From: Bacillales bacterium UBA6331
GTDB lineage: Bacteria; Bacillota_I; Bacilli_A; RF39; UBA660
Reading direction: 5' to 3'
Assembly (NCBI GenBank): GCA_002438065.1
Contig: DJSP01000093.1
Location: 4,937 to 49,583, forward strand
DNA: 44,647 nucleotides
The position numbers were made by a program, and so were the translations under genes. Below the pieces are notes generated by a model that was given only the letters and a program-made list of their open reading frames with translations, searched no databases and had not been told where the DNA came from. How positions within the stretch are numbered: the first letter of the stretch is position 1; each line of letters begins with the position of its first letter. Shown here piece by piece: positions 3,501-43,676 of this stretch.

Positions 3501-4226
3501 GATAACGAAGCTAGAGAGCATACAACAAGCTATGGTGCTAAATTAAGAGTCGAAGTAGGATCAGAAGTTAATGCTGGTGATAGATTAACTGAAGGTATTA
3601 TTGCACCTAAAGAATTACTTGCAGTTACCGATCCAATTACTACACAAGAATATATCTTAAAAGAAATTCAAAAAGTATATAAATCACAAGGTGTTGATAT
3701 CGCTGATAAACACGTTGAAGTTATTGCATCAAGAATGATTAATAAGATCAGAATAACTGATGCTGGTGATACTGATATGGTAGCTGGTTTAACAGTTAGT
3801 ATTAGAGAATTCGCTAAGAAGAATAAACCAACTATTCTTGAAGGTAAAGTTCCTGCTAAAGGTTATCCAATTATCTTAGGTATTACAAAATCAAGTTTAG
3901 AAACTGATTCATTCTTATCAGCTGCATCATTCCAAGAAACAACGAGAGTATTAACAGATGCTGCTATTAAAGGAAAAGTTGATGAATTAAGAGGCTTAAA
4001 AGAAAATGTTATTTTAGGTAAATTAATTCCGGCTGGTACTGGTGCTAGACAATATGCTGATGTAGAAATAACATTAGAAAAAGAATTTTTATCAGATGAA
4101 CCAAGTGAGGTATTGGAAGAAGAATTCTTAGATAATGAAGAAAAAACAAATATCGAAGTTAATGAAGTAGAAGAAAATGCTCCAGAAAATAACAAAGAAA
4201 CTACTGAAACTAACGATAGCGAATAA
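504..4226 (+). CDS. rpoC: DNA-directed RNA polymerase subunit beta'
   Basis: 1240 aa. N-terminal Zn finger [23 protein letters not shown], catalytic [14 protein letters not shown] motif, conserved C-terminal GKLIPAGTG, and an acidic tail. Confidence 0.98.
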
Positions 4227-4232
4227 AATAAG

Positions 4233-4262
4233 AAACTAAGATAGAAATATCTTAGTTTTTTT
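4233..4262 (+). terminator. Rho-independent terminator after rpoC
   Basis: Stem aactaagata (4234-4243) pairs with tatcttagtt (4248-4257). GAAA loop, followed by a T-run to 4262. Confidence 0.8.
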
Positions 4263-4304
4263 GCTATATATCTAAACATATGTACATAATTTTATAATAA
4301 ACAT

Positions 4305-4333
4305 TTTACATTTTATAGTCAATTTGATAGAAT
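4305..4333 (+). promoter_or_regulatory. Sigma-A-type promoter (TTTACA-17-TAGAAT)
   Basis: -35 tttaca at 4305-4310, 17-nt spacer, -10 tagaat at 4328-4333. Lies upstream of the small ORF and the metG remnant. Confidence 0.5.
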
Positions 4334-4347
4334 ATATTTGTGATTTT

Positions 4348-4443
4348 ATGAAGAAGTATCAAAGATGGATATACATTATATCTGCCATTATAATTTTTAT
4401 TTTAATTATAGCAATGCTTATAATTCACACATTTAGTTATTAA
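4348..4443 (+). CDS. Possible 31-aa hydrophobic peptide (MKKYQRWIYIISAIIIFILIIAMLIIHTFSY)
   Basis: ATG-to-TAA ORF found by hand and not in the supplied track. It has one predicted TM helix and no convincing SD. It occupies the place where the metG 5' end should be. Confidence 0.3.
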   Translation: MKKYQRWIYIISAIIIFILIIAMLIIHTFSY

Positions 4444-4450
4444 AAGGAGA

Positions 4451-5853
4451 TTAGATAATAATATTGGCTTTAATTATGATTTATATACTGCAACAATGAA
4501 GAATTATTATAAAAAATATGTTCAAAATGCTTTTTTAAAAATGATTAATAATGGATATATTTATGAAAAAGCAATTGAACAAGACTACTGTGATACATGT
4601 AATAAATTTGTATCAGATCGTGAAATAGTTGGAACATGTCCAAATTGTGGTGGAGAATCTACTGGTGATCAATGTGATAATTGTTTAGCATCATTAGACC
4701 CAAGTCAAGTATTAAATAAACATTGTAAAACATGTGGTAGCTTGTTAACAACTAAAATAAATAAACATTTATATTTTAAATTACCAGATTTAAAGAAGAA
4801 TTGCAAAAACTATTAGATAAAAATAAAGATAAATGGCGTAAAAACGCTATTGGAGAAACTCAAAAATATATTGATGGTTTAGTAGAAAGAGCAACAACTA
4901 GAGAACTTGACTGGGGTGTTGAAGTACCAGTAAAAGGCTACGAAAACAAAAGAATATATGTATGGATTGAAGCTGTTTTAGGTTATTTAAGTACAGCCGA
5001 TAAGGTATTACGTGAAAGAGGATTAAATCCCGATGATGTATTATCAGATAACAATCAAAATCTAAGAGTTTATATGGTTCATGGCAAAGATAATATTCCA
5101 TTCCATACAACAATTTTTCCAGCCCTTGAATTAGCAATAGGTGATAATTATAGATTACCTGATTATATAATTTCATCAGCATATGTTAATTTAAATAATG
5201 AAAAAATGAGTAAAAGTAAAGGAAACCTAATATCAGTTAACGAATTATTAGAATTATTTAATAAAGATACTTTAAGATTCTACTTTATTTTTAACGGACC
5301 TGAAGTTAAAGATATAAGTTGTTCAATTGAAGAAATGATAACTGTTCATAATAAATTCTTAGTTGGAACACTAGGAAACTTTATTAATCGTAACTTCTCA
5401 TTTATAAATAAAAAATTTGAAGGTATTATTGCTGAAGGAACAGTTGATTCTAAAATAAAAGAAACAACTTTAAATACTTATAAAGAAGTTGGAGAACTAA
5501 TTGAAAAAGGAGAATTAAAGTCAGCGTTATCAAAAGTAATGGATTACATTTCTTTAGGCAACAAATATTATGATGAAAATACTCCATGGATTAAAGTAAA
5601 AGAAAATATTAAAGAATTTAACGATATAACTTATACTTGTACATATATGACAGTAAATATAGCTAATTTAATTAGACCGTTCTTAAGTGAAACTTCAGAT
5701 AAAATTCTTAACATGCTAGACATATCTAAAGAAAGTAACTGGCAAGAAAAAGAATTAACCGGAAACATTAAAATAGTAAATAATGAACTATTATTAAATC
5801 GCATCGATGATGAAGAAACTAAAAGTATTATGGATAAATTAAATAACAAATAG
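4451..5853 (+). pseudogene. metG: Methionine--tRNA ligase remnant: N-terminally truncated and frameshifted
   Basis: ORFs 4496-4816 and 4801-5853 are one MetRS frame broken by a 1-nt deletion at the A-run 4792-4794 (KLPDL | KEELQKLL). Zn knuckles CDTC/CPNC/CDNC/CKTC and KMSKS (NNEKMSKSKGN) are present. The frame only opens at 4424 and similarity starts near LDNNIGFNYDLYTAT. About 85 N-terminal residues, including the HIGH motif, are therefore missing. Confidence 0.8.
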
Positions 5854-5861
5854 TTTAAAAT

Positions 5862-5897
5862 AAAGTCTTACAATGATAATAGTAAGGCTTTTCTATT
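5862..5897 (+). terminator. Probable terminator after the metG remnant
   Basis: aaagtcttac (5862-5871) pairs with gtaaggcttt (5882-5891) with one G-U pair. 10-nt loop and a weak T-rich tail. Confidence 0.45.
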
Positions 5898-5924
5898 GAT
5901 TTAATAACAAATGTTTGCTATAAT
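5896..5924 (+). promoter_or_regulatory. Sigma-A-type promoter (TTGATT-17-TATAAT)
   Basis: -35 at 5896-5901, 17-nt spacer, -10 tataat at 5919-5924. Lies 30 nt upstream of the AGGGGG SD and the ATG at 5955. Confidence 0.55.
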
Positions 5925-5954
5925 ATATCACATGTAACCAAAGGGGGAATTTAT

Positions 5955-7358
5955 ATGTCAAGAAAAACACAGACAATTTATGAATATTTTGAAGAATATC
6001 CTGAAGAAATGATAGATAAGGTCATATCAAAATTAAACACTGCTGAAAAAGAATTATTAACTATTAGATATGGAGAAGATTTGCATAATCCATGTCCAAA
6101 AGAAGAATGGAGTAATAATAAATATCGTTATCAATTTTACAAAATATTACTTCCTAAAATTAGAACTTTATTAGAAGCAGAAAAAGAAAAAGAAAATGAT
6201 ATAGTTAAAGAAAATGAAGAAGAAAGTAAAGATATTGTTCAAGAAAGTATAAAAGAATATCCTAAAGAAGTAGAAATATCTTCAATTTCAACTTATACAA
6301 CTTACGATTTAAATGATTATAAAGTATTAATTGATTTAATAAATAAAAATGTATCAAATACAGATATATGTAATAAGCTAAATATTACTTTTTCTGAATT
6401 AACAGCAAAGTTATTAGAACTTAAGAATTCAGGTGTATCATATCAAAGAAAATATTATTCAAATGGTATGATCCAATATGTACCTATTTCAAGAATATCA
6501 TGTTTAAAAAATAATGCTAAGCAAAGTCAAGAAGAAACAATTATAACTGATAAATTTGAAAACGAAATAAGAATTGTAGCTTCATCAGATTTCCATTATG
6601 GAAACAGTGAATGTCGTCAAGATCTAATTGAGAAAGCATTTAATTATTGTGTTCAAAATGGAATTCATATTATTATGTGTGGTGGTGACTTACTTGATGG
6701 TGTTTTTACTAAGGGGACACAAATAATATCAGATCCTTATGAGCAAGTTAAATATTTCCTAGAAAACTATCCTCACGATGATTCAATTTTAACATTCTCT
6801 GTTGGCGGAGATCATGATTTATCAATACTAAATAGTGCTTGCATAGATTTATCACTAATTACATCAAATTATCGCCCTGATGTTATAATTCCAGGATATA
6901 ATAATAGCTTTATAAATCTTAAAAATGATAAAATTCATTTATATCATCATATAGATAATGCTATGAAGTTTACTAGCGATGCTGCAATTATGTTGCACGG
7001 ACACTCACATAATTATAGTATTAGAACAAGTTATAATGGTAAATCATTAGATATATGTGTTCCAAGCTTGTCAAATATATTACAATCAGTACCTACTATT
7101 TTAGATATGACATTAAAATTTAAAAATGGTTTTATAAGTGAAGTTTGTGTTAAACAAATTTTGTTAGAAAATAAACCGATAGTTTTAGGCGAATTTAATT
7201 ATTATAAAGATAATAATATAGTAGGTACAATAAATAATACTGAAAATTATAAAAGTACAAGTCAGATAAAAGCAAATACCGAAAATAAATACGTAGATGA
7301 TGTATGTGGAACGTCAATGTCTCAAATCGAAAAATTCAATAAAAGATATAAATTATAA
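5955..7358 (+). CDS. Calcineurin-like metallophosphoesterase with N-terminal HTH (sigma-70 region-4-like) domains
   Basis: The C-terminal half carries metallophosphoesterase (MPE) motifs: SSDFHYG, CGGDLLDG, VGGDHD, LHGHSH. The N-terminus (TAEKELLTIRYGEDL) and the middle region (NVSNTDICNKLNITFSELTAKLLELKNSG) look like HTH modules. Confidence 0.6.
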   Translation: MSRKTQTIYEYFEEYPEEMIDKVISKLNTAEKELLTIRYGEDLHNPCPKEEWSNNKYRYQFYKILLPKIRTLLEAEKEKENDIVKENEEESKDIVQESIKEYPKEVEISSISTYTTYDLNDYKVLIDLINKNVSNTDICNKLNITFSELTAKLLELKNSGVSYQRKYYSNGMIQYVPISRISCLKNNAKQSQEETIITDKFENEIRIVASSDFHYGNSECRQDLIEKAFNYCVQNGIHIIMCGGDLLDGVFTKGTQIISDPYEQVKYFLENYPHDDSILTFSVGGDHDLSILNSACIDLSLITSNYRPDVIIPGYNNSFINLKNDKIHLYHHIDNAMKFTSDAAIMLHGHSHNYSIRTSYNGKSLDICVPSLSNILQSVPTILDMTLKFKNGFISEVCVKQILLENKPIVLGEFNYYKDNNIVGTINNTENYKSTSQIKANTENKYVDDVCGTSMSQIEKFNKRYKL

Positions 7359-7368
7359 AAATATAAAG

Positions 7369-7392
7369 ATCCTTTAGATAAGGATTTTTTTA
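7369..7392 (+). terminator. Weak terminator
   Basis: atcctt/aaggat 6-bp stem, tagat loop, 7-T run. Confidence 0.45.
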
Positions 7393-7425
7393 ATTTGTTT
7401 AAAAAATTAAAAAATTTTGACAAAT

Positions 7426-7453
7426 TTAGCACTCATGTATTGACAAGTGCTAA
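7426..7453. promoter_or_regulatory. CIRCE-like HrcA operator 1, overlapping the -35 box
   Basis: TTAGCACTC-N10-AAGTGCTAA. Compared with the consensus TTAGCACTC-N9-GAGTGCTAA it has one extra spacer nt and one mismatch. Confidence 0.7.
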
Positions 7454-7468
7454 GCATAATATTATAAT
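7440..7468 (+). promoter_or_regulatory. Consensus sigma-A promoter of the hrcA operon (TTGACA-17-TATAAT)
   Basis: ttgaca at 7440-7445 lies inside the spacer of CIRCE 1. tataat at 7463-7468. Confidence 0.75.
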
Positions 7469-7472
7469 GGTA

Positions 7473-7499
7473 TTAGCATTCAAGAAAAATGAGTGCTAA
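7473..7499. promoter_or_regulatory. CIRCE HrcA operator 2
   Basis: TTAGCATTC-N9-GAGTGCTAA, with one mismatch to the consensus. It lies between the -10 box and the GGGAG SD of hrcA. Confidence 0.85.
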
Positions 7500-7516
7500 T
7501 AAAAGGGAGTGATTAA

Positions 7517-8506
7517 ATGAATAATCGCCAAAATGAACTTTTAAAACTGATTGTCGAAACATATATCAATACAATTAGACCTGTTGGATCAAAAAGCTTA
7601 GTAAAAAAGCTTAAATGTTCTAGCGCAACGATTCGTAACGATATGGCATTCTTAGAAAGTTTAGGTTATTTAGAAAAGACTCACACATCAAGCGGACGTA
7701 TTCCTTCAGAAGCAGGATACAAATATTATGTTGATAATTTAATGAAACCAAAAGAATTAACTGGAGAAGAAGTATTAAAATTACAAACTATTTTAAATAA
7801 TAAAAATTTGCCTGTAAGTGATTGTATCGTAAAATGTATGGAAATCATTAGCGATATTACTAACTATACAACCGTCATATTAGGTAAAGAGAGTGAAAAT
7901 AATACTTTAAAACAAATAAGTATTATTCCATTAGATACAAATAAAATAGTAGCAGTAGTTGTTACATCTTCCGGACATGTTGAAAATAAACAATTCATTA
8001 TTCCAAACAATATAAGTGTAAATGAATTGGTTAAAACAAGTGAACTTATTAATAAAGAATTATTTGGTACCAAATTATCAAACATTAATGAAAAGCTAGA
8101 ATTTGAAATAAAACCGGTAATTGCCAGAAAAATTAAAGAACATGAGGCAATTATGAGATTATTTAAAGAAGCTTTTGAAGATTTCACTGTAAAGAATTCC
8201 GATGTATTATTTCAAGGTAAAACTAATATTTTAAAGCAACCAGAATATGATGAACCAGATAAAATAAAGGGAATGATTAGTAAACTTGAAAATATTGAAT
8301 TAGTCAAAAAGATAGAAACAGATGATGAAGAAATCAATATATACATTGGCGAAGAAAACGAATTTGATCCAAACGTAACTGTTATTAAAACAAGTTATAA
8401 TATTGATGGAGAAGAGGGAACTATTGCTATAATAGGTCCAAAAAGAATGGAATACGATAAAGTAGTTACGCTTCTTAACTACTTAAAAAGTTACATAGAA
8501 AGGTGA
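7517..8506 (+). CDS. hrcA: Heat-inducible transcription repressor HrcA
   Basis: N-terminal winged-helix region RQNELLKLIVETYINTIRPVGSKSLV...SSATIRNDMAFLESLGYLEKTHTSSGRIPS. Preceded by CIRCE elements and followed by grpE-dnaK. Confidence 0.95.
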   Translation: MNNRQNELLKLIVETYINTIRPVGSKSLVKKLKCSSATIRNDMAFLESLGYLEKTHTSSGRIPSEAGYKYYVDNLMKPKELTGEEVLKLQTILNNKNLPVSDCIVKCMEIISDITNYTTVILGKESENNTLKQISIIPLDTNKIVAVVVTSSGHVENKQFIIPNNISVNELVKTSELINKELFGTKLSNINEKLEFEIKPVIARKIKEHEAIMRLFKEAFEDFTVKNSDVLFQGKTNILKQPEYDEPDKIKGMISKLENIELVKKIETDDEEINIYIGEENEFDPNVTVIKTSYNIDGEEGTIAIIGPKRMEYDKVVTLLNYLKSYIER

Positions 8507-9057
8507 TTCAAGTGGAAAAAGAACATAAAAAGAAAAATGTAGTTGAAGAAGAATCAAAAGATAAAAACATAAAACATGAAAATAAACATAATGAACTGCA
8601 AAAAGAAATAGAGGAATTAAAAATAAGATTATCTGAAGAACAAGCTAAATCAATGCGAATTCAGGCTGAAATGATGAACTTTAAAAGAAGAAAAGAGGAT
8701 GAAATAGCAAATATTTATAAATATTCAAATGAAGAATTAATTGAAGATTTATTACCAACTATTGATAATTTTGAAAGAGCATTAAAAGCTGAAGTTTCAG
8801 ATGAAGCAAGTGATGAAGTTAAGAAATACCTTGAAGGTTTTAAAATGATTTATACAAATTTAATTAAATTGCTTACTGATTTAGGTGTTAAAGAAATAGA
8901 GGCATCTGGAATTGAATTTAATCCAAATTATCATCAAGCAGTTTTAACCGAAAAAGATGTGAATAAACCTTCGAATGTAATATTAGAAGTATTACAAAAA
9001 GGATATCTTTATAAAGATAAAGTTATTCGTCCTGCAATGGTTAAAGTTAATGAATAG
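8503..9057 (+). CDS. grpE: Nucleotide exchange factor GrpE
   Basis: Contains RIQAEMMNFKRRKEDE...LLPTIDNFERAL...FNPNYHQAV. The track start GTG 8503 overlaps the hrcA stop. GTG 8512 has better SD spacing (AAAGGTGA). Confidence 0.93.
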   Translation: MIQVEKEHKKKNVVEEESKDKNIKHENKHNELQKEIEELKIRLSEEQAKSMRIQAEMMNFKRRKEDEIANIYKYSNEELIEDLLPTIDNFERALKAEVSDEASDEVKKYLEGFKMIYTNLIKLLTDLGVKEIEASGIEFNPNYHQAVLTEKDVNKPSNVILEVLQKGYLYKDKVIRPAMVKVNE

Positions 9058-9071
9058 TATTAGAGTTAAAT

Positions 9072-9389
9072 ATGAAGATTGGAAAGGCTATTCAAAGAAT
9101 AATTTTAGAAGATCAATCTGGTTTTAGTGAAGAATATTTGTTATGTTTTGAATTGTTATTAGAAATGCGAGGCATAATGGAAGATGATAGCTTATATAAT
9201 AAGGCATATTATGCATTTGCAGGTTTGTTTTCTAAACTAACTGAAAAAGAACAAATATCTATAAGAAATATATATGAATTAGATGATATAATTTTTGAAG
9301 AAATCGCAAAATCAGATGATTTACAATATGATTATGATTTAAAAAATAAAATAAAAAGGGAAAAAATTAATTCTGCTCACAGAATATAA
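9072..9389 (+). CDS. Hypothetical 105-aa acidic protein inserted between grpE and dnaK
   Basis: ORF only. I recognise no motif. It sits in the tight gap between the two operon genes. Confidence 0.45.
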   Translation: MKIGKAIQRIILEDQSGFSEEYLLCFELLLEMRGIMEDDSLYNKAYYAFAGLFSKLTEKEQISIRNIYELDDIIFEEIAKSDDLQYDYDLKNKIKREKINSAHRI

Positions 9390-9406
9390 TATAAGAAAGG
9401 AAATGA

Positions 9407-11230
<1,824 letters not shown>

Positions 11231-11242
11231 TTAGTAAAGCAA

Positions 11243-11270
11243 AAAAGTTCTAGTTATTGCTAGAACTTTT
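11243..11270 (+). terminator. Terminator after dnaK
   Basis: aaaagttctag (11243-11253) pairs with ctagaactttt (11260-11270). 6-nt loop. Confidence 0.7.
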
Positions 11271-11302
11271 AACTAATTACAATATAATATAAAAGGTAAT
11301 TT

Positions 11303-13105
11303 ATGAAAAAACAAAAACTAAGAAATAAAATAGATGATAAATATAAATGGGATTTATCCGCCATATTTAAAAATGATGAAGAATTTTTAAACGAGTTTGA
11401 AAAATGTAAAGATATTATTTATGGACTTAATAAATTCAAAGGTCATATTTTAGATAGTACTAATTCACTTTATGATTATTTTAAAACAAGTGAAAAGATA
11501 GAAAGAAAATTATATAAATTATATTATTATGCAAATCTTAAACATGATGAAGATACAACAAATCCAAAATATCAAGAATATTATCAAAAAATTCAAAAAA
11601 TATTAACAGCATATTCTGAAGAAACATCTTTTGCAGCACCAGAAATGATGAAAAAAGACTATAATTATGTTAAAAAGCTAATTGAAAAAAATAGCAAGTT
11701 AAAAGATTATGAACATAATCTAGAAGATTTTTATCGTTATAAAGATCATACATTAACCGATAGAGAAGAAAAAATATTAAGTACTTTATCAGATGTATTA
11801 GGTAAAAATGCTGAAACTTTTGAAGCATTAACTGATAGTGATTTAAAATTTGGTAATATAAAAGATGAAAATGGGAAAATAATTGAATTCACTGAAAGTA
11901 ATTGGAGTAAAATTGCTAGATCTCCATCAAGAAATGTTCGTAAGAAAGGATTCAAACTATTATATAAAAGATATGCGGAATTTAAAAATACTTTAGCAAG
12001 TACCTTTTCTGGCAATGTTGATGTATTAATAAACTTAGCTAAAATAAGAAATTTTCCATCATCCTTAGAAGCATCCTTATTTGATGATGCAATTAGTAAA
12101 GATGTATATATAAATGTTATTAACACAGTTAAAAATAATTTAGAACCACTTTATAATTATTATAATTTAAAGAAAGAATGTTTAGGATTAGATAAAATGC
12201 ATTTATATGATATATACGTTGATTTAAATCAAGATTATAATCGTGAATTTACATTTGAAGAAGCAAAAGATTTAGTGTTAAATGCATTAAAACCATTAGG
12301 TGATGATTATATAAATATTCTACAGAAAGCCTTTGATGAAAAATGGATTGATATATATAATAATGTAGGGAAAAGAAGTGGAGCATATTCAAGTGGATTC
12401 TATGATACATATCCTTATGTACTCCTTAATTTTGAAGGAAAATTAGATGATGTATCAACACTTGCTCATGAATTAGGTCATTCTGTTCATACTTATCTAT
12501 CCTGTCATAATAACACATATAATAATTCAAGTTATAAAATATTTGTTGCTGAAGTAGCATCAACCGTTAATGAAATGTTATTAAGATTATATCTACTTAA
12601 TAATTCTAAAAATGATAATGAAAAATTATATATATTAAATCAAATAATGGAACTATTTAAATCTACAATATATCGTCAAACTATGTTTGCTGAATTTGAA
12701 ATGAATATGCATGAGTTAAGAAGTAATGGGGAAGCATTAACTTATGAATTATTATGTCAGAAATATTATGATTTAAATAAAATATATTTTGGAAAAGATG
12801 TTGTAGTTGATAAAGAAATAATGTATGAATGGGAAAGAATTCCTCACTTCTATTATGATTTTTATGTTTACAAATATGTTATTGGTCTTGCATGTGCATG
12901 TAAGATCGCCAATGATATTTATAATAATGTACCAAATGCATTAGAAAATTATAAAATATTTTTAAAAAGTGGCGGATCAAATTATCCAAGTGAAGAACTA
13001 AAATATGCAGGAATAGATATTACTAAACCTGATGTATTAATAGATGCAATAAATTTCTTTAATGAAACAGTTAAAGAATATCAAAAAATATTAAGAAAGA
13101 GGTAA
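11303..13105 (+). CDS. pepF: Oligoendopeptidase F (M3B metallopeptidase)
   Basis: 600 aa. HELGHSVH zinc motif and family-typical N-terminus ([14 protein letters not shown]). Confidence 0.9.
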
Positions 13106-26309: not shown

Positions 26310-26384
26310 TTTTTAAAAAAAGCAAAAAAATATATATAAAAACATATATAAAATAAAAAAATACAACTAAATAATTAAAAAACA

Positions 26385-26413
26385 TTGAAAATAGTATATT
26401 TAATTGCTATATT
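26385..26413 (+). promoter_or_regulatory. Candidate promoter of the island operon (TTGAAA-17-TATATT)
   Basis: ttgaaa at 26385-26390, tatatt at 26408-26413. An AAGGAAAGGA SD precedes the ATG at 26445. Confidence 0.5.
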
Positions 26414-26444
26414 AATTTTAATAAAGGAAAGGATAAGCGATTAA

Positions 26445-27782
26445 ATGAAAAAAACTTTTAATAATAAAAAATACATCGATTTACAAACTAAAAAATTAAT
26501 GGAGAGTATTAATCCTAGATTTGACCATGTATATTTAGAAATTGGAGGAAAATTTTTTGACGACCAACATGCTTCAAGAGTACTTTCAGGTTTTAATCCA
26601 AGCGTTAAATATGAAATAATAAACCAGTTAAATATAGAAAAAGAGTTTATTATTTGTATTAGTACCAAATCAATTAAAAAAAGTAAAAAAAGAAGGGATT
26701 CAAAAAAGTTGTATACTTACGAATGCTTTGAAATTGCAAAAAAGTTAAAAAATGACGGTTATAAGGTCTCAATATGTATAACCGGATATCACTCTTGTGC
26801 AAAAGCAAATTCATTTATAACAAAAATGAACAGTGAAGGATTTAATATATATAAATTATATGAAATGTCAGATTATCCATACAATCAAGAAAAAATCTTA
26901 TCAAAAGAAGGATTAGCACAAAATGATTATATACCTGTCGAAAAAAAACTTATTTGTATCATTGCACCAGGTCCAGATTCAGGCAAATTTGCAGCTGCTA
27001 TTTCACAAATATATCATGAAAATATCCTTCAACGTAAAATTTCTACATATAGAAAATTTGAAACTTTTTTAATACCAGAATTATCTATCAACAATCCAAT
27101 AAATTTAGCTAGCTCCATAGCAATGTGTGACGTTTCAGGTAATGATACAATCGATAAACGTTATTTTAGAAAAACTGGGAAAATATGTTGTTTAGATGAA
27201 AGAGACAATGCTTCATTTGAATTATTATATAAAATAATACCAGATGAAGATAAAGATGAAATAAGTTCCTTTTCTGAAACAATCATAAATTGCATACTTG
27301 ATTGTATATTTGATTTAGAAAGTGCAGAAAATCATGCCATCAAAGAAATAATTCGAAGATACAAAGAAGCAAAAAAAATGTATGATAGTGGTAAATTAAG
27401 TCAAATAGAATACAATGAAGCGCTACGCATTTATAACTTAATAAATTCTAAAATAGGCATGTCTGAAAACGAGATAAATTTTTTTCTTAAAGAAGCTATT
27501 GATTTTTGGGGATATGATTGTCAAAGTAATGTTTGTTTAGAAGAATTAGGAGAATTAATACAAGCAATATGTAAATATAAAAGAGAAGAATATGAAAAAG
27601 CACCACAAAAAATAAAAGACAATTTATTAGAAGAAATAGCCGATGTTCATAATATGATTAATCAATTAGAAATGTATTTTGGATATGAAGAAATTAAAAA
27701 AATTAGAATCAAAAAAATATTTAGAACTAGAGAACTACTAAGACAAGAAATGTTAGAAGAGTCATTGAAAGTAGAAAATTAA
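26445..27782 (+). CDS. DUF1846 (UPF0371)-family N-terminal region fused to a MazG-like all-alpha NTP pyrophosphohydrolase domain
   Basis: The N-terminal ~330 aa match the UPF0371 pattern as I remember it (YLEIGGKFFDDQHASRVLSGF, IIAPGPDSGKF, YRKFETF). The last ~100 aa carry EELGELIQAICKY...LLEEIADVHNMINQL, which is typical of MazG/dCTPase-like domains. Confidence 0.6.
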   Translation: MKKTFNNKKYIDLQTKKLMESINPRFDHVYLEIGGKFFDDQHASRVLSGFNPSVKYEIINQLNIEKEFIICISTKSIKKSKKRRDSKKLYTYECFEIAKKLKNDGYKVSICITGYHSCAKANSFITKMNSEGFNIYKLYEMSDYPYNQEKILSKEGLAQNDYIPVEKKLICIIAPGPDSGKFAAAISQIYHENILQRKISTYRKFETFLIPELSINNPINLASSIAMCDVSGNDTIDKRYFRKTGKICCLDERDNASFELLYKIIPDEDKDEISSFSETIINCILDCIFDLESAENHAIKEIIRRYKEAKKMYDSGKLSQIEYNEALRIYNLINSKIGMSENEINFFLKEAIDFWGYDCQSNVCLEELGELIQAICKYKREEYEKAPQKIKDNLLEEIADVHNMINQLEMYFGYEEIKKIRIKKIFRTRELLRQEMLEESLKVEN

Positions 27783-27783
27783 C

Positions 27784-28239
27784 ATGTACGTTTTTTTAGC
27801 ATCACCATTTTCCCAATTTTGTGAAGGATATGAAGACATTATTATTAAAGACAGATGGTTTTTTGAAGAAATAATTAAAAATTTAAAGAATAATAATATA
27901 GATTATTTTTGTTCTCAAGAACGCGAAGCATGGGGTGAAAAATATATAAGCCCAGATGAGAGTATCAATGAAGACGTGAATGGTATCAAAAAATGTGATC
28001 TATTTATTGGGATTCCAGGAAATCCAATTTCCGGTGGAGTTCATGTTGAAATAGGATGGGCAAGTATGCTAAATAAGAAAATAATTCTATTTTTAGATAA
28101 AAATACAGAATATAGTCCTATGATATTAGGATTACCAAGTTTGTTCAATTGTGATTTAATTTACTACGATAAGTTATTGACTATGAAAACAGTAAAACTA
28201 ATCACAGATGTAATTCAAAAGGAGAAAAAATGTATATAA
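27784..28239 (+). CDS. Nucleoside 2-deoxyribosyltransferase-fold protein (possible nucleotide N-glycosidase)
   Basis: 151 aa. The N-terminus is VFLASPFS, and GIPGNPISGGVHVEIGWASMLNKKIILF carries the conserved Glu. The fold family includes the CMP hydrolases BlsM and MilB. Confidence 0.55.
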   Translation: MYVFLASPFSQFCEGYEDIIIKDRWFFEEIIKNLKNNNIDYFCSQEREAWGEKYISPDESINEDVNGIKKCDLFIGIPGNPISGGVHVEIGWASMLNKKIILFLDKNTEYSPMILGLPSLFNCDLIYYDKLLTMKTVKLITDVIQKEKKCI

Positions 28240-29240
28240 AACTTTTTAAAGATATCTTAGCAAAAAATAAAAATAACAATAGTCCAATATATAGTTTTAT
28301 TTCTGTATCTAACAAATGTAATGCTAATTGTAAATTTTGTGATATCCACGAAAAAAAGGAAATAAATACTTCAATTGATATAAAGAAATTATTAAAGGAT
28401 TTAAAAGAATCCGAAATCAAGTATGTTCATTTTACTGGTGGTGGGGAACCACTAGCAAACAAAGAAATATACTCATATTTTGAGGAAGCAACTAATTTAG
28501 GATTAAATATAGTTTTTATTACGAACGGATATTTTCTAAACGACAAGATAATAGATGAGTTAGGCAAATACAATATAAAAGCTATTTTCTTTTCTATAGA
28601 TAGTCACATAAAAGAAATTCATGACAAAACTAGGAATGTTCCAGGAATATTTGATAAAGCAACTTATTCAATAAATGCTATCAAATTAAAATATCCAAAC
28701 ATAAAAATAATTATAAATCATGTATTAAACAGAGATAACATTGACAATTTAGAAGATTTCATCAAAATGAAAAACAAATATAAATATGATTATTTAAATA
28801 TATTAATAGTTAAAGAATGTCCAGAGTATTATTTTAACAAAGAACAAATTATAAATTATAACAATAAAATAAATAACATAAAAAAATTAATGAAAGCAAA
28901 CAATGTGCAATTATTAGCAGATGAGCTAGATTATTTTTCCTCAAACTGTTACACCGAAGATGGTTCAGATTTAAGAAAAAATGCAATACCATGTCAAATA
29001 CTTAACTATTGTTGTTTTATAGATTGTGTTTCAGGAAATGTTTATCCATGCGATTGCAGTGTTCATAGAGATTATAATTATTATTGTATGGGAAATATAA
29101 AGCAAAACTCAATTAAAGAAATAATGAATTCAGAAAAAGCATCAAAATTACGAAAGGAATTATTAAAATGCAGTAAATGTAAAAGTAAATGTGATTATGC
29201 TAACATGTATTTTAATAAAGTAATAAATGAAAAACAATAA
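28230..29240 (+). CDS. Radical SAM enzyme with a C-terminal SPASM/twitch-like Cys-rich domain
   Basis: CNANCKFC (CX3CX2C) near the N-terminus and a GGGEPL SAM-binding motif. The C-terminus is Cys-rich: CQILNYCCFIDC...PCDC...CSKCKSKC. Confidence 0.85.
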   Translation: MYIKLFKDILAKNKNNNSPIYSFISVSNKCNANCKFCDIHEKKEINTSIDIKKLLKDLKESEIKYVHFTGGGEPLANKEIYSYFEEATNLGLNIVFITNGYFLNDKIIDELGKYNIKAIFFSIDSHIKEIHDKTRNVPGIFDKATYSINAIKLKYPNIKIIINHVLNRDNIDNLEDFIKMKNKYKYDYLNILIVKECPEYYFNKEQIINYNNKINNIKKLMKANNVQLLADELDYFSSNCYTEDGSDLRKNAIPCQILNYCCFIDCVSGNVYPCDCSVHRDYNYYCMGNIKQNSIKEIMNSEKASKLRKELLKCSKCKSKCDYANMYFNKVINEKQ

Positions 29241-30330
29241 TTATGTATTTTTAGCTGATGCTTTTGGTTATGGGCCAATAAATACACTTTGTCAAATAGT
29301 AATCGAATTGAAAAAAAAATTAAAAGGCAATTATATATTTGTTGGACCAAAAATGTGTATATCACAAGCAAAAAAATATAATATTTTCCATGAATTTATA
29401 GAAATGAATTACACAAACAACGAAATTAATCAAAATAAGGAAACATTTTTAAATGCAAATAAAATAATTGCGGTCGAAACAACCGATATATTAATTTATC
29501 TGATAAATCATTACAAAATCAAAAATATATATTTAATTGATAATTTGTTTTGGATGTGGGATTATTTAGAACCAGAATTAAAAGAAATAAAAAAATATTA
29601 TATTTCTAAGGTTATAGATTGTTCGTCTAATATTGAAAGAATAGCAAAAGATTTTAGTAATTTAATGTCAGTTGGTGCATTAAGGCAAATGAACAAGTTT
29701 AAAAAAATCACCAAAAATAATTTAATAATATCTCTTGGTGGTGCAGAATCTTATATGTTTTCAGAAAATGATATTGAAGATTATTACCTAAATACAATCA
29801 AAATAATTTTAGACACAAAATACATTAATAAATTCAGTAAAATATATATTGCTGGTGGCGAAAGTATTATAAAATACTTGAAGAAAAACATCATAAATGA
29901 AAGAGTAGAAATAAAAACCTATAATAATTCAGAATATTTAAATATTTTATATAATTGTTCACACGCAATAATGTCTCCAGGACTAGGAAATTTTAATGAA
30001 GTTATCTCCACAGATATCAAGTGTTTATTTTTACTACCAATAAATTATAGTCAATATTTACAAAGAAATATATATAAGTCACTTAATATAGGTTTTCACT
30101 TTCAAGAAAATAATAAAGAAAAACATATAGCAAAATACTTAAGTGAAGATGAAGGCGTTCAAAAAGTAATAAACAACTTAAAATGTTATGATTTTTATGC
30201 ATTTAAAGAAGAGTTAACGTCGTACTTCGAAGATATTTCAAACACAATGAAAAGAGAAGAATTTTATAATACAATAGATAAAAATGGTATTAAAGAAATC
30301 TGCAACGATATTTTAAAGGAGGAACAATGA
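29227..30330 (+). CDS. GT-B-fold glycosyltransferase-like protein
   Basis: 367 aa. The N-terminus is FLADAFGYGPINTL. The C-terminal half has ISLGGAES...IAGGE...MSPGLGNFNEV...LLPINYSQYLQ, resembling GT1/GT28 donor-binding motifs. The sequence is divergent. Confidence 0.45.
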   Translation: MKNNNYVFLADAFGYGPINTLCQIVIELKKKLKGNYIFVGPKMCISQAKKYNIFHEFIEMNYTNNEINQNKETFLNANKIIAVETTDILIYLINHYKIKNIYLIDNLFWMWDYLEPELKEIKKYYISKVIDCSSNIERIAKDFSNLMSVGALRQMNKFKKITKNNLIISLGGAESYMFSENDIEDYYLNTIKIILDTKYINKFSKIYIAGGESIIKYLKKNIINERVEIKTYNNSEYLNILYNCSHAIMSPGLGNFNEVISTDIKCLFLLPINYSQYLQRNIYKSLNIGFHFQENNKEKHIAKYLSEDEGVQKVINNLKCYDFYAFKEELTSYFEDISNTMKREEFYNTIDKNGIKEICNDILKEEQ

Positions 30331-31457
30331 GAAAAATAAATGAAGATGCATTTTATGGTTTAAATAGAATTAACCTAAGTGAAATAATTGAAGTTTCAAA
30401 AATGCTACGAAACAAAAGCTTATTTAGGTATGACGGTGTAAAAATGCAATATGAAACTGATAAAGTCGAGCAAAAATTAAGTGATTTTTTTAAACAAGAG
30501 ATACTATGTGTTAATAATGGAACATCGGCTTTAAAACTATGTTTACTTGCCAATAACATTGGTTATGGAGATGAGGTCATAGTGCCATGTTTATCATTTA
30601 TTGCAACAGCAGCATGTTGTTTAACAGTTGGAGCAATTCCAGTTTTTTGTGAAATAAACAATACATTTAATATTGATCCGAAAGAAATTGAAAAAAATAT
30701 TACAAAAAAAACAAAAGCTATTATTGTTGTACATTATCAAGGATATCCATGTGAAATGAATGAAATAGAAAAAATAGCTCGAAAACATAACCTAATAATA
30801 ATAGAAGATACTGCACAAGCATTTGGTGCAAAATACAGTAATAAATTACTAGGTACATATGGGCAATCGGCTGCATTTAGTTTTCAATCATGTAAAATTA
30901 TTACATGTGGCGAAGGTGGTGCAGTAACTAGTAAAGTGAATTTTGACTTTATTAAAAGATACGCAGACAATGGTGGATATCGTAAAAAAGATATGATGCC
31001 AGTTTGGGACAAAGATTTTTGCACATATGGAGAAAACTTTAAAATGACAGATTTGCAGAGTGCAATATTAATAAAGCAATTCAAAAAACTTAATAAAATA
31101 ATTCAATATCAAAGATTTCTTTATAATTATATAACTAATAACATAACAAATTATAACCTTAGAAAAAGCGTTGATATCAACGGAAGTATAAATATGAGCT
31201 TATGTGTAATATTTAATAATATGAAAGAATGTAATAAATTTATATCTTATATGAATAAATATGACATTCCATTTGGCAAAAGGACATCAAATTTTTTACC
31301 AAATTATAACGTCTTTAAAAATAAATCTAAAGTAAATAATTGTCAAAAAAGTTACAATTTATTAGATAGAAGTGCCTGGTTAGTTTTAAACTCTAACCTT
31401 TCCAAATCGGATTGTAAGTATATTATTAAAGTAATGGAAGAATATCATGGAAAATAA
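30327..31457 (+). CDS. DegT/DnrJ/EryC1/StrS-family PLP-dependent sugar aminotransferase
   Basis: NGTSALKLCL, GDEVIVPCLSFIATA, IIEDTAQAFGA, and the Schiff-base Lys in FSFQSCKIITCGEGG. GGAGG SD and an ATGA overlap with the upstream ORF. Confidence 0.88.
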   Translation: MRKINEDAFYGLNRINLSEIIEVSKMLRNKSLFRYDGVKMQYETDKVEQKLSDFFKQEILCVNNGTSALKLCLLANNIGYGDEVIVPCLSFIATAACCLTVGAIPVFCEINNTFNIDPKEIEKNITKKTKAIIVVHYQGYPCEMNEIEKIARKHNLIIIEDTAQAFGAKYSNKLLGTYGQSAAFSFQSCKIITCGEGGAVTSKVNFDFIKRYADNGGYRKKDMMPVWDKDFCTYGENFKMTDLQSAILIKQFKKLNKIIQYQRFLYNYITNNITNYNLRKSVDINGSINMSLCVIFNNMKECNKFISYMNKYDIPFGKRTSNFLPNYNVFKNKSKVNNCQKSYNLLDRSAWLVLNSNLSKSDCKYIIKVMEEYHGK

Positions 31458-32274
31458 TTTTACAAACGATATCATTTACAGAAATTCATTATATTATCGT
31501 TTTAATTACAAAAAAATTAAATCTTTGAAAAGCATAGATTTAATAAGATATTATGATGGATTAAATTGCTTTCAGTATTTCGAATTTAATATTACGGAAG
31601 AAGATATTCAAGATTTAATTAAAATAAATAAAAAAAATGACATCAAATTTAGATATATAGATGAAAACTCAAATATTTACAAAATATTATCACAGAGATT
31701 TATAATAAAAAAAACAGATGAATGGTACTCACCCATAATAGAAATTAAGAAAAATAATTTTCAAGATTACGTTCAATCCAAATCCAATAATTTTAAAAGG
31801 TTAATCAAAAAATGTCAATTATATAATAAACAAATAAAAGTAGTTAAATCTAATAAAAATAATATTAATAATTTATTTAAAGATGTATTATTAGTGGATC
31901 AAAAAAGTTGGAAAGCAAGAGAAAAAAGTGATATGTTTAATCTTGATAATGAACAAATAATATATTTATCGATGTTAAAATATTGCGACATTGTAGTAGC
32001 ATATAAGTGTAATACACCAATTGGATACTCATTATTAATACAATATAATAACAAATATTACGCAGCAAAATGGGGAGCAACAAATGATGGACGCAAATTA
32101 AATGCAGGGATAATTTGCTTATTAACTCAAATCAAAAAAATAAGTTCAAATAAAGACTTATATTTAGATTTATGGGGAAGGAGAAATAAAATATATGACA
32201 GAATGGCCACTTCTTATAAAAAAAGATTATATTTTAGCATAATAAAAAATGATAATAAAAAAAGAACAAATTAA
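31447..32274 (+). CDS. GNAT-fold (Fem/CelD-like) acyl- or aminoacyl-transferase
   Basis: The C-terminal half (WKAREKSDMF...IGYSLLIQYNNKYYAAKWGATNDGRKLNAGIICLL) resembles the BioF2-like/Fem-type acetyltransferase fold. Confidence 0.4.
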   Translation: MENNFTNDIIYRNSLYYRFNYKKIKSLKSIDLIRYYDGLNCFQYFEFNITEEDIQDLIKINKKNDIKFRYIDENSNIYKILSQRFIIKKTDEWYSPIIEIKKNNFQDYVQSKSNNFKRLIKKCQLYNKQIKVVKSNKNNINNLFKDVLLVDQKSWKAREKSDMFNLDNEQIIYLSMLKYCDIVVAYKCNTPIGYSLLIQYNNKYYAAKWGATNDGRKLNAGIICLLTQIKKISSNKDLYLDLWGRRNKIYDRMATSYKKRLYFSIIKNDNKKRTN

Positions 32275-40129: not shown

Positions 40130-40157
40130 ACTTCCTATAATATATATTATGTTAACC
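40130..40157. other. dif: dif chromosome-dimer resolution site (XerC/XerD target)
   Basis: ACTTCCTATAA-TATATA-TTATGTTAACC compared with B. subtilis dif ACTTCCTAGAA-TATATA-TTATGTAAACT (from memory) gives 25/28 identical positions. The layout is 11-6-11. It sits in a gene-free gap between convergent genes, 1.4 kb from a Xer-type recombinase gene. Confidence 0.8.
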
Positions 40158-40567
40158 AACACATATTTTAAAAAGAAAAGAACTATTTGTTACCAATCAC
40201 TATATAATATACTTCCCTATCACTATTTTATAATTAAATCTTAATAAGTTAGTTATCAATAAACTATTTTTTTATTTATAAAATCATATTCTCTAATAAT
40301 CTATAATCTTTTTATATATATAAATTTTCGTTATATAAATTTTTTTTTATACTTATAATTAACATTTATTTTTTATTCAAATTATATTTTATACATTATA
40401 TTAATTATATGTTTTTATTTTGTATTATTACCTTATTTTCTTTTTAGGATACATAAAACTTATATTTTTTAATTTATATATAACGATCATTCAATAATGT
40501 AAATTCTCTATTTTGAGCTCCACTATTCTCCTACTATTTTTACTTTACATTTAATTTACATAATAAA

Positions 40568-41311
40568 TTACAACACAAATTCAGTTAAAACAACTACAAC
40601 TAAGCCGAGTAGAGTACCTAAAACAATATTCTTCTTGTTATACTTCTCCACTTCCTTAAATATTTCATTAAAACTAATAGAGACCATAATACCAGACACA
40701 AATAAAAGTATTAAGCTAATTAATAAATTAGATAAAAATCTATATAAAAACAAATACGCAACAACAGCTCCTATTGTTTCAGCAAAGCCACTTATTAAAG
40801 TACAGGTAAATGCCCTACTCTTTTTATTTGTTCCATAATACGTCGGAATAGCAATCGCAATACCTTCAGGTATATTATGAAGCATAATTGCAACACTAAG
40901 TTTAATACCTAAATTAATATTTATAGTAGATGATAAAAAAGTAAGAATTCCTTCCGGCATATTATGAATCATTAATCCTATCATAGATAAAATTCCTATT
41001 TTTTCCAAACTATTAGAGTTATTTTTACTAGTAAACCTATCAATAATCTTAATAATCAAATTTCCTATAACCAGCATTCCCAGTAAAACAATAGTAGCAA
41101 TAAATAAATTATATTCTTTTAACAAATAAAAGAATCCATCTGGTATTAATTCAAATAAAGAAATAAAGAACATAATAGAGCCTGAAAACGCTAAAGAAAA
41201 ACCTATAAATCCATTAATGTTCTTTGGTTTTAAATATATAAAGAAATATCCAATCGTCGTAGATATTCCTGCTAAGAAAGTAATTAAAAATGGTATATAA
41301 AAATTATTCAT
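40568..41311 (-). CDS. zupT: ZIP-family zinc transporter ZupT
   Basis: 247 aa with 8 TM helices. Paired HNMPEGI and HNIPEGIAIAIP metal-binding motifs. Confidence 0.88.
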   Translation of the reverse strand: MNNFYIPFLITFLAGISTTIGYFFIYLKPKNINGFIGFSLAFSGSIMFFISLFELIPDGFFYLLKEYNLFIATIVLLGMLVIGNLIIKIIDRFTSKNNSNSLEKIGILSMIGLMIHNMPEGILTFLSSTININLGIKLSVAIMLHNIPEGIAIAIPTYYGTNKKSRAFTCTLISGFAETIGAVVAYLFLYRFLSNLLISLILLFVSGIMVSISFNEIFKEVEKYNKKNIVLGTLLGLVVVVLTEFVL

Positions 41312-41530: not shown

Positions 41531-42394
41531 CTATCTAGGAAAGTATTCATCATAGTCCTTCTTAAGAGTTTCATTATCTAAATGAGTATATATTTGAGTA
41601 GTGGCTAGATTTTCATGACCTAGAAGTTCCTGAATTATTCGCAAATCAGCTCCATTTTTAAGTAAATGAGTTGCATAAGTATGTCTTAAGGTATGAGGAG
41701 AAACATTTTTCTTTATACCTTTTTTTTCGCATTCTTGTTTAATAATTCTGAAGATATATTGTCTTGATAACTTATTTCCTAAATTATTTAAAAATATATA
41801 TGTACTATTTTTCTTATTAATAGAAGGTCGATAATTATTTATATAATCATTTAATACATTTTTAGCAATATCTCCAAAAGGAACTATTCTCTCCTTCTTC
41901 CCCTTCCCCATTACTCTAATTAAATTTTCAGCCATATCAACATTAGCCATTTCTAAATTAATAAGTTCACTAATTCTAAGTCCTGAAGAATAAAATAGTT
42001 CAAGAATTGCCTTATTTCGAGCATCATACGGAGTTTTTATTTCAATATCTAATAAAGATGTTACTTCTTCTAAAGAAAGCACTGTAGGCAAGCTTTTATC
42101 TAGTTTTGGAGATTTAAATTTAGTCAAAGGATTATCTTTTATCTTTTCTAATCTTTCTTCATAATTATAGAAAGATTTCAAAGCACTTAAACTATGAGAA
42201 ACACTTTTAGGAGATTTACTACTAATTGCTTTTAAGTATTTTTTAACATCATCATCATTAATTTTAAGCAAATCCTTATTAACATATTCACTAAACATAG
42301 ATAATTCTAAGATATAAGAATTAACCGTATTAACACTATAATTTTTTTCATATCTTAAATAGTTTTCATATTCTTTAATATAATCATCGTTCAT
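41531..42394 (-). CDS. xerD: Tyrosine recombinase, XerC/XerD family
   Basis: N-terminal SAM-like domain (YENYLRYEKNYSVNTVNSY). Catalytic residues are in ARNKAILELFYSSGLRISE, HTLRHTYATHLL and LGHENLATTQIYTH. The start is set at ATG 42394; the track ORF extends to 42466. Assignment as XerD rather than XerC is uncertain. Confidence 0.85.
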   Translation of the reverse strand: MNDDYIKEYENYLRYEKNYSVNTVNSYILELSMFSEYVNKDLLKINDDDVKKYLKAISSKSPKSVSHSLSALKSFYNYEERLEKIKDNPLTKFKSPKLDKSLPTVLSLEEVTSLLDIEIKTPYDARNKAILELFYSSGLRISELINLEMANVDMAENLIRVMGKGKKERIVPFGDIAKNVLNDYINNYRPSINKKNSTYIFLNNLGNKLSRQYIFRIIKQECEKKGIKKNVSPHTLRHTYATHLLKNGADLRIIQELLGHENLATTQIYTHLDNETLKKDYDEYFPR

Positions 42395-42470
42395 ACCATA
42401 ACCTCTACCATAAATTATACATACATCTTTAAAAATAATCAAATTTAATATATAATATAAAGGCAAAGGA

Positions 42471-43676
42471 ATGACTGTAATGGAATTATTAGCAAATGAT
42501 ATTAGACCAATTAAATTAAATGATATATATGGGCAAAATCATCTTATAGGTGAAGGTAAAATTCTAACTAATTTAGTAAAAAATAAAAAATTATTTTCAA
42601 TGATATTTTATGGTAATCCCGGTTGTGGTAAAACAAGTATCGCAAATGCCTTAGTTAATGAATTAAATATGCCATATCGTATGTTAAACGCTGTAATTAA
42701 TAAAAAAACAGACTTTGATATCGTAATTGAAGAAGCTAAAATGAATGGCCAAATGATTCTAATAATAGATGAAATTCATAGAATGAACAAAGATAAACAA
42801 GATATTCTCCTTCCCTATTTAGAAAACGGTAAAATAATTATGATAGGTTTAACAACATCAAATCCTTATCATAGTATTAATCCAGCTATAAGATCAAGAT
42901 GTCAAATCTTTGAAGTAAAATCTCTTAAACCTGAAGATATTGTTAAAATTCTTATCAAAGCTAAAGACAATTTAGAAGGTATTCAAATTGATGACAATTG
43001 TCTAAATATTATCTCATCTTCTTCAAATGGAGACGTCAGAAGCGCTTTAAATTTACTAGAAATGGCTTATTATAGTTCAACAGATCATATCATAACTGAA
43101 GATGTTTTAAAAAGTATTAACGCTAAACCAATAATATATATTGATAAAAATGGTGATAATTACTATAACTCAATCAGTGCCTTACAAAAATCAATTAGAG
43201 GTAGTGACGTTGATGCAGCAGTATATTATTTAGGTGTATTATTAGAAGCACAAGATTTAGATATAATATTTAGAAGATTATCAGTAATTGCATATGAAGA
43301 TATTGGTCTAGCAAATCCATCTATCGGTCCAAAATTAGATGCCGCTATTAATGCTGCAACCAGAGTCGGCTTTCCTGAATGTATTATTCCATTATCCGAA
43401 ATAGTAATTGAAATGGCTTTATCTCCTAAAAGTAATAGTGCTTATCTAGCAATTGATAAAGCTTTAACTACAATTAGAACTAAAAACTGTGGAAGTGTTC
43501 CTAAACATATTCATACCAATAGTAAAGATTATTTATATCCTCATAATTATAAAAATAGTTGGGTTAAGCAACAATACTTGCCAGACAATATCAAAAATGA
43601 AAAATTCTACTATCCTAAAAATAATGCTTATGAAAATAATCTTAATAAAATAGATAGTGAAAAGAAGAAACAATAA
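42471..43676 (+). CDS. rarA: Replication-associated recombination protein A (AAA+ ATPase RarA/MgsA)
   Basis: Walker A GNPGCGKTS, Walker B IIDEIHR, and the MgsA C-terminal region ISALQKSIRGSDVDAAVYYL. Confidence 0.92.
   Translation: MTVMELLANDIRPIKLNDIYGQNHLIGEGKILTNLVKNKKLFSMIFYGNPGCGKTSIANALVNELNMPYRMLNAVINKKTDFDIVIEEAKMNGQMILIIDEIHRMNKDKQDILLPYLENGKIIMIGLTTSNPYHSINPAIRSRCQIFEVKSLKPEDIVKILIKAKDNLEGIQIDDNCLNIISSSSNGDVRSALNLLEMAYYSSTDHIITEDVLKSINAKPIIYIDKNGDNYYNSISALQKSIRGSDVDAAVYYLGVLLEAQDLDIIFRRLSVIAYEDIGLANPSIGPKLDAAINAATRVGFPECIIPLSEIVIEMALSPKSNSAYLAIDKALTTIRTKNCGSVPKHIHTNSKDYLYPHNYKNSWVKQQYLPDNIKNEKFYYPKNNAYENNLNKIDSEKKKQ

Follow-up and report, generated by a model that had tools for sequence, protein, structure and literature searches.

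Window positions 40130–40157 are very probably the dif site in the chromosome of an uncultured gut bacterium of the class Bacilli that has a small, low-GC genome. The window is a stretch of 44,647 nucleotides (C116:4937-49583) taken from contig C116, which is 68 kb long. Its source assembly is a MAG of 1,565,952 bp (1.57 Mb) in 117 contigs, with 25% GC, 89% completeness and 3.5% contamination. The case for dif draws on the match to the Bacillus subtilis site, on the single-copy occurrence of the site here and in relatives, on its position at a GC-skew switch, and on three phage-like elements that lie in the orthologous site of congeners. See Table 1 for the coordinates of all features discussed.

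Table 1. Coordinates of the dif site, its surroundings in the window, and the inserts at orthologous sites
Feature	Location	Strand	Accession	Size or sequence	Basis or remark
dif site	40130..40157	+		28 bp, ACTTCCTATAA-TATATA-TTATGTTAACC	B. subtilis match, uniqueness, single copy in relatives, GC-skew switch
Left arm, predicted XerC/CodV-type half-site	40130..40140	+		ACTTCCTATAA	by position and analogy with B. subtilis and E. coli dif
Central region, predicted strand-exchange zone	40141..40146	+		6 bp, TATATA	same as B. subtilis centre
Right arm, predicted XerD/RipX-type half-site	40147..40157	+		TTATGTTAACC	9/11 against E. coli XerD arm
Cumulative GC-skew maximum plateau (+ to − switch, terminus region)	39241..40211	.			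within 15 counts of maximum
Strain-variable accessory island	26322..38955	+		12.6 kb	missing from congeners; right edge 1.2 kb left of dif
HTH-domain protein gene	39013-39789	+			left of the dif gap
ZupT/ZIP-family zinc transporter gene	40568..41311	−			between dif and xerD; NF003243 207.7 bits (cut-off 252) and Pfam Zip
xerD-like tyrosine recombinase gene	41531..42466 (TTG start at 42466)	−			NCBIfam models and 1A0P alignment
rarA/mgsA-like recombination-associated AAA+ ATPase gene	42471..43676	+			divergent from xerD; Pfam MgsA_C, AAA_assoc_2, AAA; NCBIfam RarA-type
G041 insert	L070 (G041:C4) 3618-12290		CANNTX010000004.1	8.6 kb	
G042 insert	L071 (G042:C4:43000-61000) 6866-11773		CAKOMY010000004.1	4.85 kb	
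G016 insert	L072 (G016:C24) 1187-6110			4.9 kb	

Sequence of the site, its look-alikes and its conservation

The full 28-mer, read on the plus strand, is ACTTCCTATAATATATATTATGTTAACC. It has an 11-6-11 layout, with two 11-bp arms that form an imperfect inverted repeat flanking the 6-bp centre. The symmetry of the arms lies in the inner ATAA / TTAT and in TT / AA pairs, and six of the 11 arm positions are palindromic. We compared the site with the B. subtilis dif, ACTTCCTAGAATATATATTATGTAAACT, the experimentally confirmed seed of Kono et al. 2011 (PMC3025954). The initial annotation had quoted this sequence correctly. Its count of 25 identical positions out of 28 also holds, with differences only at positions 9 (T/G), 24 (T/A) and 28 (C/T), and the central TATATA is the same in both sites, as it had stated. 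The right arm had been called close to the E. coli XerD arm, TTATGTTAAAT, with which nine of the 11 bases agree. The left arm is the predicted half-site of the XerC/CodV-type partner, by analogy with the two experimental systems.

The B. subtilis site (CodV = XerC, RipX = XerD; Sciochetti et al. 2001 as cited in PMC3025954) shares with the window site its 28-bp length, 11-6-11 layout, single copy and location at the terminus, and both systems have two Xer paralogues and FtsK/SpoIIIE-type translocases. Unlike the B. subtilis site, the window site is substituted at positions 9, 24 and 28, and it comes from an uncultured gut organism of the Bacilli whose genome is ~1.5 Mb. The E. coli dif / XerCD / FtsK system also has the same site architecture (dif = GGTGCGCATAATGTATATTATGTTAAAT; Kono et al. 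2011, PMC3025954). However, the outer seven bases of its XerC arm are unrelated to ours, and the window centre is TATATA rather than TGTATA, a centre that is present in several congeners.

When the window was searched with B. subtilis dif, allowing up to three mismatches, 40130–40157 was the sole match. No match at that threshold appeared in 100 dinucleotide-preserving shuffles of the window. Furthermore, the rest of the 1.57-Mb assembly contains no second match to the 28-mer within five mismatches. The initial annotation had anticipated a single copy in the genome, and the next best match has six mismatches. We also built a log-odds profile from 19 distinct orthologous sites of relatives. The dif site scores 43.3 bits with this profile, against 13.6 bits for the next best position in the genome.

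Both runners-up were considered as a second dif and rejected. The six-mismatch sequence at C110:20692 and its partner at C110:22814 are inverted repeats, ACTTCCTATAATATCAA, in a type I R-M locus. These repeats (G000:C110:20692-22841; L023 about 6693-8841) flank a gene for a 267-aa Xer-like tyrosine recombinase, and the locus also carries hsdR, hsdM and hsdS-like fragments. The repeat pair around this small recombinase gene is probably an hsdS inversion switch for phase-variable type I R-M specificity. The first 14 bases of the repeats are common to the dif left arm, where ~0.1 such 14-mers are expected by chance; this resemblance may be meaningful or may be due to chance. The profile runner-up, C13:9915 (13.6 bits), was set aside because it falls within a coding ORF close to dnaA. 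Its sequence, GTTTACCATCAAATATATTATGTAAACC (G000:C13:9915-9942), lies in a lipoprotein-like ORF about 0.9 kb from dnaA, which occupies C13:7642-9000 in this genome. A 16-base core of it, XerD-type arm included, recurs in most genomes of the genus, most likely through conservation of the coding sequence.

Next, we turn to the relatives, 40 of which were searched at up to three mismatches (41 genomes counting the window's own, G000). Exactly one match was obtained in 32 of the 40 (33 of 41 with the window's genome) and two matches in none, and a reversed control pattern gave 0 matches in the relatives searched. The eight relatives that lack a match at this threshold may be diverged or incomplete; at least one of them, G035, has no Xer match either. 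The identical 28-mer is single copy in seven other members of the genus; elsewhere in the genus, the centre is TGTATA or TGTATG and the last base is T. All 19 distinct sequences carry the same base at positions 8-12, 15-16, 18-23 and 25-26. In the left arm this leaves positions 8-11 (ATAA) constant and 1-7 variable, and in the right arm 18-23 and 25-26 are constant. One by-product is a consensus dif for this uncultured gut lineage, ACTTCCTATAA-TRTATA-TTATGTTAACY. A further close comparison for the window dif is offered by the sites that Kono et al. 2011 (BMC Genomics 12:19; PMC3025954) predicted in Firmicutes and Tenericutes. Their survey drew on the complete genomes that existed in 2011, with 100 from Firmicutes and one from Tenericutes. 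Judging by its date, the uncultured lineage of the window is presumably absent from it.

The replication terminus and the neighbouring DNA

GC skew on contig C116 is +0.159 over the 45 kb left of dif and −0.260 over the 23 kb to its right. The base-level cumulative G−C curve peaks at C116:44326 (window 39390), and its plateau, C116:44177-45147, encloses dif at C116:45066-45093. This + to − switch is by far the strongest among contigs of at least 8 kb, with a rise of 1988 and a fall of 1533 (next, 486 and 457). Gene orientation changes at the same place: over the whole contig, 34 ORFs on the plus strand and one on the minus strand lie left of dif, and three plus and 16 minus lie right of it. 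The initial annotation had placed the replication terminus here and had noted the orientation flip, and both observations stand. The skew switch coincides with dif on C116 instead of lying far from the locus, and the sites of closed relatives lie near mid-chromosome.

A whole-genome skew curve is impossible for a fragmented, 89%-complete MAG, and two closed relatives were therefore used instead, sampling twenty 20-kb stretches per chromosome. The orthologous dif lies at 975,370 in G034 (1,966,006 bp, single contig), which is 49.6% of its length, and at 1,181,686 in G038 (2,431,147 bp, single contig), which is 48.6%. In G038, all samples are positive before dif and negative after it, and the last sample, near the contig end, is positive again. 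The same pattern is seen in 19 of 20 samples of G034, the exception being a negative sample at 700 kb, before dif. The terminus call is thus supported by contig C116 and the two closed relatives. As Kono et al. 2011 (PMC3025954) point out, dif indicates the terminus region, and the precise meeting point of the forks may differ from it.

Polar motifs gave no further help. GAGAAGGG and GGGNAGGG are virtually absent, and GAAGAAG points towards dif 41:3 (93%). All 35 permutations of its letters together point the same way 341:48 (88%). As the permutations are nearly as polar, the GAAGAAG bias is not informative beyond purine skew, and we rejected FtsK-guiding polar motifs as added evidence for the terminus. 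We take these three sequences to be the FtsK-type guides of B. subtilis, E. coli and Lactococcus lactis.

Around the dif site, the intergenic DNA is AT-rich and spans 778 bp between two genes that converge on it. Congeners share the order dif-zupT-xer, and zupT is a case of conserved synteny with no part in the recombination mechanism. No known RNA families or terminators were found in the dif intergenic region. A few bases upstream of dif, at 40094-40124, a short hairpin rich in A and T precedes a T-run (GATGGATAATTTATCATC TTTTTAT), and G041 and G042 preserve this element in their left flanks. It may represent a weak terminator that is too AT-rich for the terminator scan.

The accessory island had been placed 1.2 kb from dif, and this distance is accurate, as its ABC-F gene ends at 38935, 1195 bp away. 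The further claim that accessory DNA adjoins the terminus was also upheld, with ~26322-38955 absent from four congeners whose flanks are otherwise collinear. In L001, L004, L005 and L006, window ~26320 is joined directly to ~38955/38990, and therefore the 12.6 kb between is accessory; G041 and G042 have the same deletion joint. The right end of the island carries the ABC-F gene, an APH(3')-like gene and a split PHP gene. The PHP-family phosphoesterase models that the ORF at 35537-35959 matches in their N-terminal part are matched in their C-terminal part by the adjacent ORF at 36035-36406, so the PHP gene is interrupted. L002 (CAKOJQ010000005.1) holds only one piece of the island, 35158-37205, which matches the window at 99.6% identity, against about 93% for the flanks of L002. 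This suggests recent exchange of the piece or a mosaic island. The piece corresponds to the PHP-APH(3')-like segment; no other part of the island occurs in L002, where the ABC-F gene is also largely missing. A conserved HTH gene stands between the right edge of the island and dif. There is no dif-like site at the island edges, and thus the island was not inserted by Xer recombination at the present dif.

Xer recombinases, FtsK and the linkage of xer to dif

A Xer-family gene had been reported beside the site, at a distance of 1.4 kb. Indeed, a Xer-type tyrosine recombinase is encoded at 41531-42466 on the minus strand, and its end at 41531 lies 1374 bp from dif. The protein scores 320.9 bits with the XerD model TIGR02225, 311.4 bits with the XerC model TIGR02224 and 299.7 bits with the general Xer model NF001399, above the cut-off of 279. 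The best solved structure is E. coli XerD (PDB 1A0P; E = 3e-52). The blocks conserved in the alignment with 1A0P, which are GLRISEL, GKGKKER, HTLRH, GH and YTH, hold the catalytic Arg, Lys, His-x-x-Arg, His and Tyr. The 1A0P alignment starts at residue 30, which makes the ATG at 42394 a more plausible start than the TTG at 42466; this favours the start that the initial annotation had chosen.

A second full-length paralogue, G000:C47:4170-5081, scores 292.8 bits with the XerC model and 263.6 with XerD. Both proteins fall just below the NCBIfam equivalog cut-offs (320.9 against 329.6 for the window protein and 292.8 against 335.15 for C47), and their assignments as XerD and XerC are therefore tentative. 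For the recombinase adjacent to dif, the slightly better HMM score tentatively points to XerD rather than XerC. With the XerS model NF003462, it reaches 117.3 bits where the cut-off demands 267. In most genomes of the genus, the number of full-length Xer genes is exactly two. We also found two FtsK gamma domains (PF09397), at 96.9 and 96.8 bits, on C97 and C33. These lie at G000:C97:2403-2582 and G000:C33:14156-14335, in open frames of 746 aa and 439 aa, and two separate gamma domains are reminiscent of the SpoIIIE/SftA pair of B. subtilis. The genome thus encodes all parts of a classical two-recombinase, FtsK-guided system.

The system would then work as follows. The XerC-like recombinase (C47) would bind the left arm, ACTTCCTATAA, and the XerD-like recombinase, encoded 1.4 kb from dif, would bind the right arm, TTATGTTAACC. 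Homologous recombination between sister chromosomes would join them into a dimer, and an FtsK/SpoIIIE-type translocase with a gamma domain would bring the two dif copies together at the septum. The recombinases would exchange strands at the edges of the 6-bp TATATA, and the dimer would be resolved to monomers. The pairing of arms with proteins, the order of strand exchange and the dependence on FtsK are predictions modelled on B. subtilis CodV/RipX and E. coli XerC/XerD.

The linkage between gene and site is tight throughout the lineage. The higher-scoring Xer gene lies 1.2–6.5 kb from dif in all 17 assessable genus genomes, and a Xer gene lies 0.8–4.0 kb from it in five of seven assessable relatives from other families (G025, G027, G033, G034 and G036). 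The exceptions are G032 and G029, in the latter of which dif is at a contig end. Where the distance exceeds ~1.4 kb, there is extra DNA between zupT and xer or at dif itself. Examples of linked pairs are G034:C1:973667-975397, G036:C89:10953-13355 and G025:C4:41160-44063. Kilobase-scale linkage of a xer gene to its site is more typical of single-recombinase XerS/XerH modules than of XerCD. It also differs from B. subtilis, where ripX and dif are presumably far apart, in that the XerD-like gene here lies 1.4 kb from dif and the linkage is kept across the lineage. The tendency described by Kono et al. 2011 (PMC3025954), in which xerC is nearer dif and xerD nearer the origin, is genome-scale only, and the kilobase linkage of a XerD-like gene is thus a lineage peculiarity and no mechanistic novelty.

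Inovirus-like inserts at the orthologous site and the reading of the window dif

Three congeners (G041, G042 and G016) carry inserts of 8.6, 4.85 and 4.9 kb, respectively, exactly in the orthologous dif. In window orientation, the order in G041 is left flank, intact dif, insert, ACTTGTGGCAA-TATATA-TTATGTTAACC and right flank. In G042, it is left flank, ACTTCCTATAA-TATATA-CTAAATTATCT, insert, intact dif and right flank, and in G016, intact dif (ACTTCTTATAATGTATATTATGTTAACT), insert, AGATCTCTAAG-TGTATA-TTATGTTAACT and right flank. Each insert is therefore bounded by one intact and one hybrid dif in direct repeat. The flanks of the congeners align with the window on both sides of the inserts, which identifies the window as the empty site; L001, L002 and L004–L006 have an uninterrupted site as well. 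From the G041 and G042 junctions, the crossover falls within positions 10-17 (AA and the centre), where Xer strand exchange would be expected.

All three inserts encode a Zot-like ATPase (PF05707 / phrog_197) and a rolling-circle replication initiator of the Rep_trans, Rep_OBD or REP_ORF2-G2P type. A Zot-like assembly ATPase is a hallmark of inoviruses. No integrase was matched among the insert ORFs submitted to Pfam and PHROGs, which included all those of at least 132 aa, with several of 60-99 aa left out. The morphogenesis genes of the G042 and G016 elements are 79% and 57% identical, and their Rep modules are unrelated. Since these unrelated modules lie next to attP, we rejected a shared attP for the two elements. 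The reconstructed attP is dif-like only in the XerD arm and centre for G041 and G016, and only in the XerC arm and centre for G042. Furthermore, we looked for the G041 element in metagenomic data. The predicted attP junction of its free circular form had no exact match in IMG/VR and its hybrid 28-mer had none in JGI metagenome contigs. The G041 Rep protein had no relative in IMG/VR. The relevant samples may simply be missing from these collections.

Integrative mobile elements exploiting Xer (IMEX) include CTXphi, VGJphi and TLCphi of Vibrio cholerae and XacF1 of Xanthomonas (e.g. PMC5666396). The congener elements resemble them in being small and inovirus-like, with a Zot-like ATPase, a rolling-circle Rep and no integrase found, and in sitting inside dif, with one intact and one hybrid copy at their ends and the site vacant in related genomes. 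Unlike the Vibrio and Xanthomonas elements, they reside in low-GC Bacilli and not in Proteobacteria, and their attP differ in which arm mimics dif. By gene content and junctions, we classify the congener inserts as putative Xer-exploiting integrative elements of the CTXphi/VGJphi/TLCphi/XacF1 kind. As natural inserts at the orthologous dif, they provide indirect in vivo evidence for the predicted binding and recombination of this site by Xer proteins in the genus. An IMEX inserted in the window itself was considered and rejected. Each half of dif has three matches in the window at up to three mismatches, true site included, against about 1.5 expected. These half-site counts are at chance level, and the window dif is accordingly uninterrupted.

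The elements bear on whether the window site could be a pseudo-dif left by a Xer-exploiting mobile element, with the true dif in unassembled DNA. Such elements, bounded by dif-like sites, do occur at the orthologous locus of congeners, and the MAG is only 89% complete. We nevertheless regard this as extremely unlikely. The window has no second half-site above chance (three against 1.5 expected per half), both flanks are collinear with at least five congeners that have no insert, the identical 28-mer is single copy in seven other genus members, closed relatives have one copy each, and the site sits at the skew switch. The same elements weigh against readings that give the sequence no recombination role, either as an AT-rich near-palindrome arisen by chance or as an operator bound by the neighbouring HTH protein, because the site is the insertion point of phage-like elements without an integrase. 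A 25% GC genome with a very AT-rich intergenic region does offer room for such a sequence, and the HTH protein gene ends 340 bp upstream of dif. However, none of the 100 shuffles matched, three C and one G occupy exact B. subtilis dif positions, and the site is conserved in single copy across several families of the class, at skew switches, which leaves this explanation a next to negligible probability.

A system like XerS/difSL or XerH/difH, run by the adjacent recombinase alone, would account for the tight linkage of gene to site (0.8–6.5 kb in 17/17 genus genomes and 5/7 other-family relatives). Yet the layout of the site is the classical 11-6-11, its two arms differ from each other as in B. 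subtilis dif, the XerS model gives just 117 bits against its cut-off of 267, and almost every genome of the genus has a second full-length, XerC-like paralogue. We therefore judge it very unlikely. Our preferred reading remains a chromosomal dif served by two recombinases.

As a canonical dif, the window site is a housekeeping element of an ordinary and very well-known type. It locates the replication terminus on C116 and, together with dnaA on C13, provides an anchor for ordering the fragmented MAG. The neighbouring island, truly accessory in that at least four congeners lack it, is thereby placed in the terminus region, which is plastic. The conserved xerD-dif linkage is a by-product of the analysis. 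Going beyond the window, we consider it moderately likely that inovirus-like phages of at least two families, none with an integrase, repeatedly use dif of this genus for attachment and rely on the host XerC/XerD. In attP they would imitate only the centre and a single arm of dif, on the XerD side for two elements and on the XerC side for the third. The window would be an empty attB, and dif, zupT and xerD would form a small recombination module through their tight linkage. If this is true, the congener phages would, to our knowledge, rank among the earliest Xer-exploiting phages known from outside Proteobacteria. The three inovirus-like insertions support the role of the site as a Xer substrate, and they also lead to filamentous phages of gut Bacilli that are as yet unstudied.
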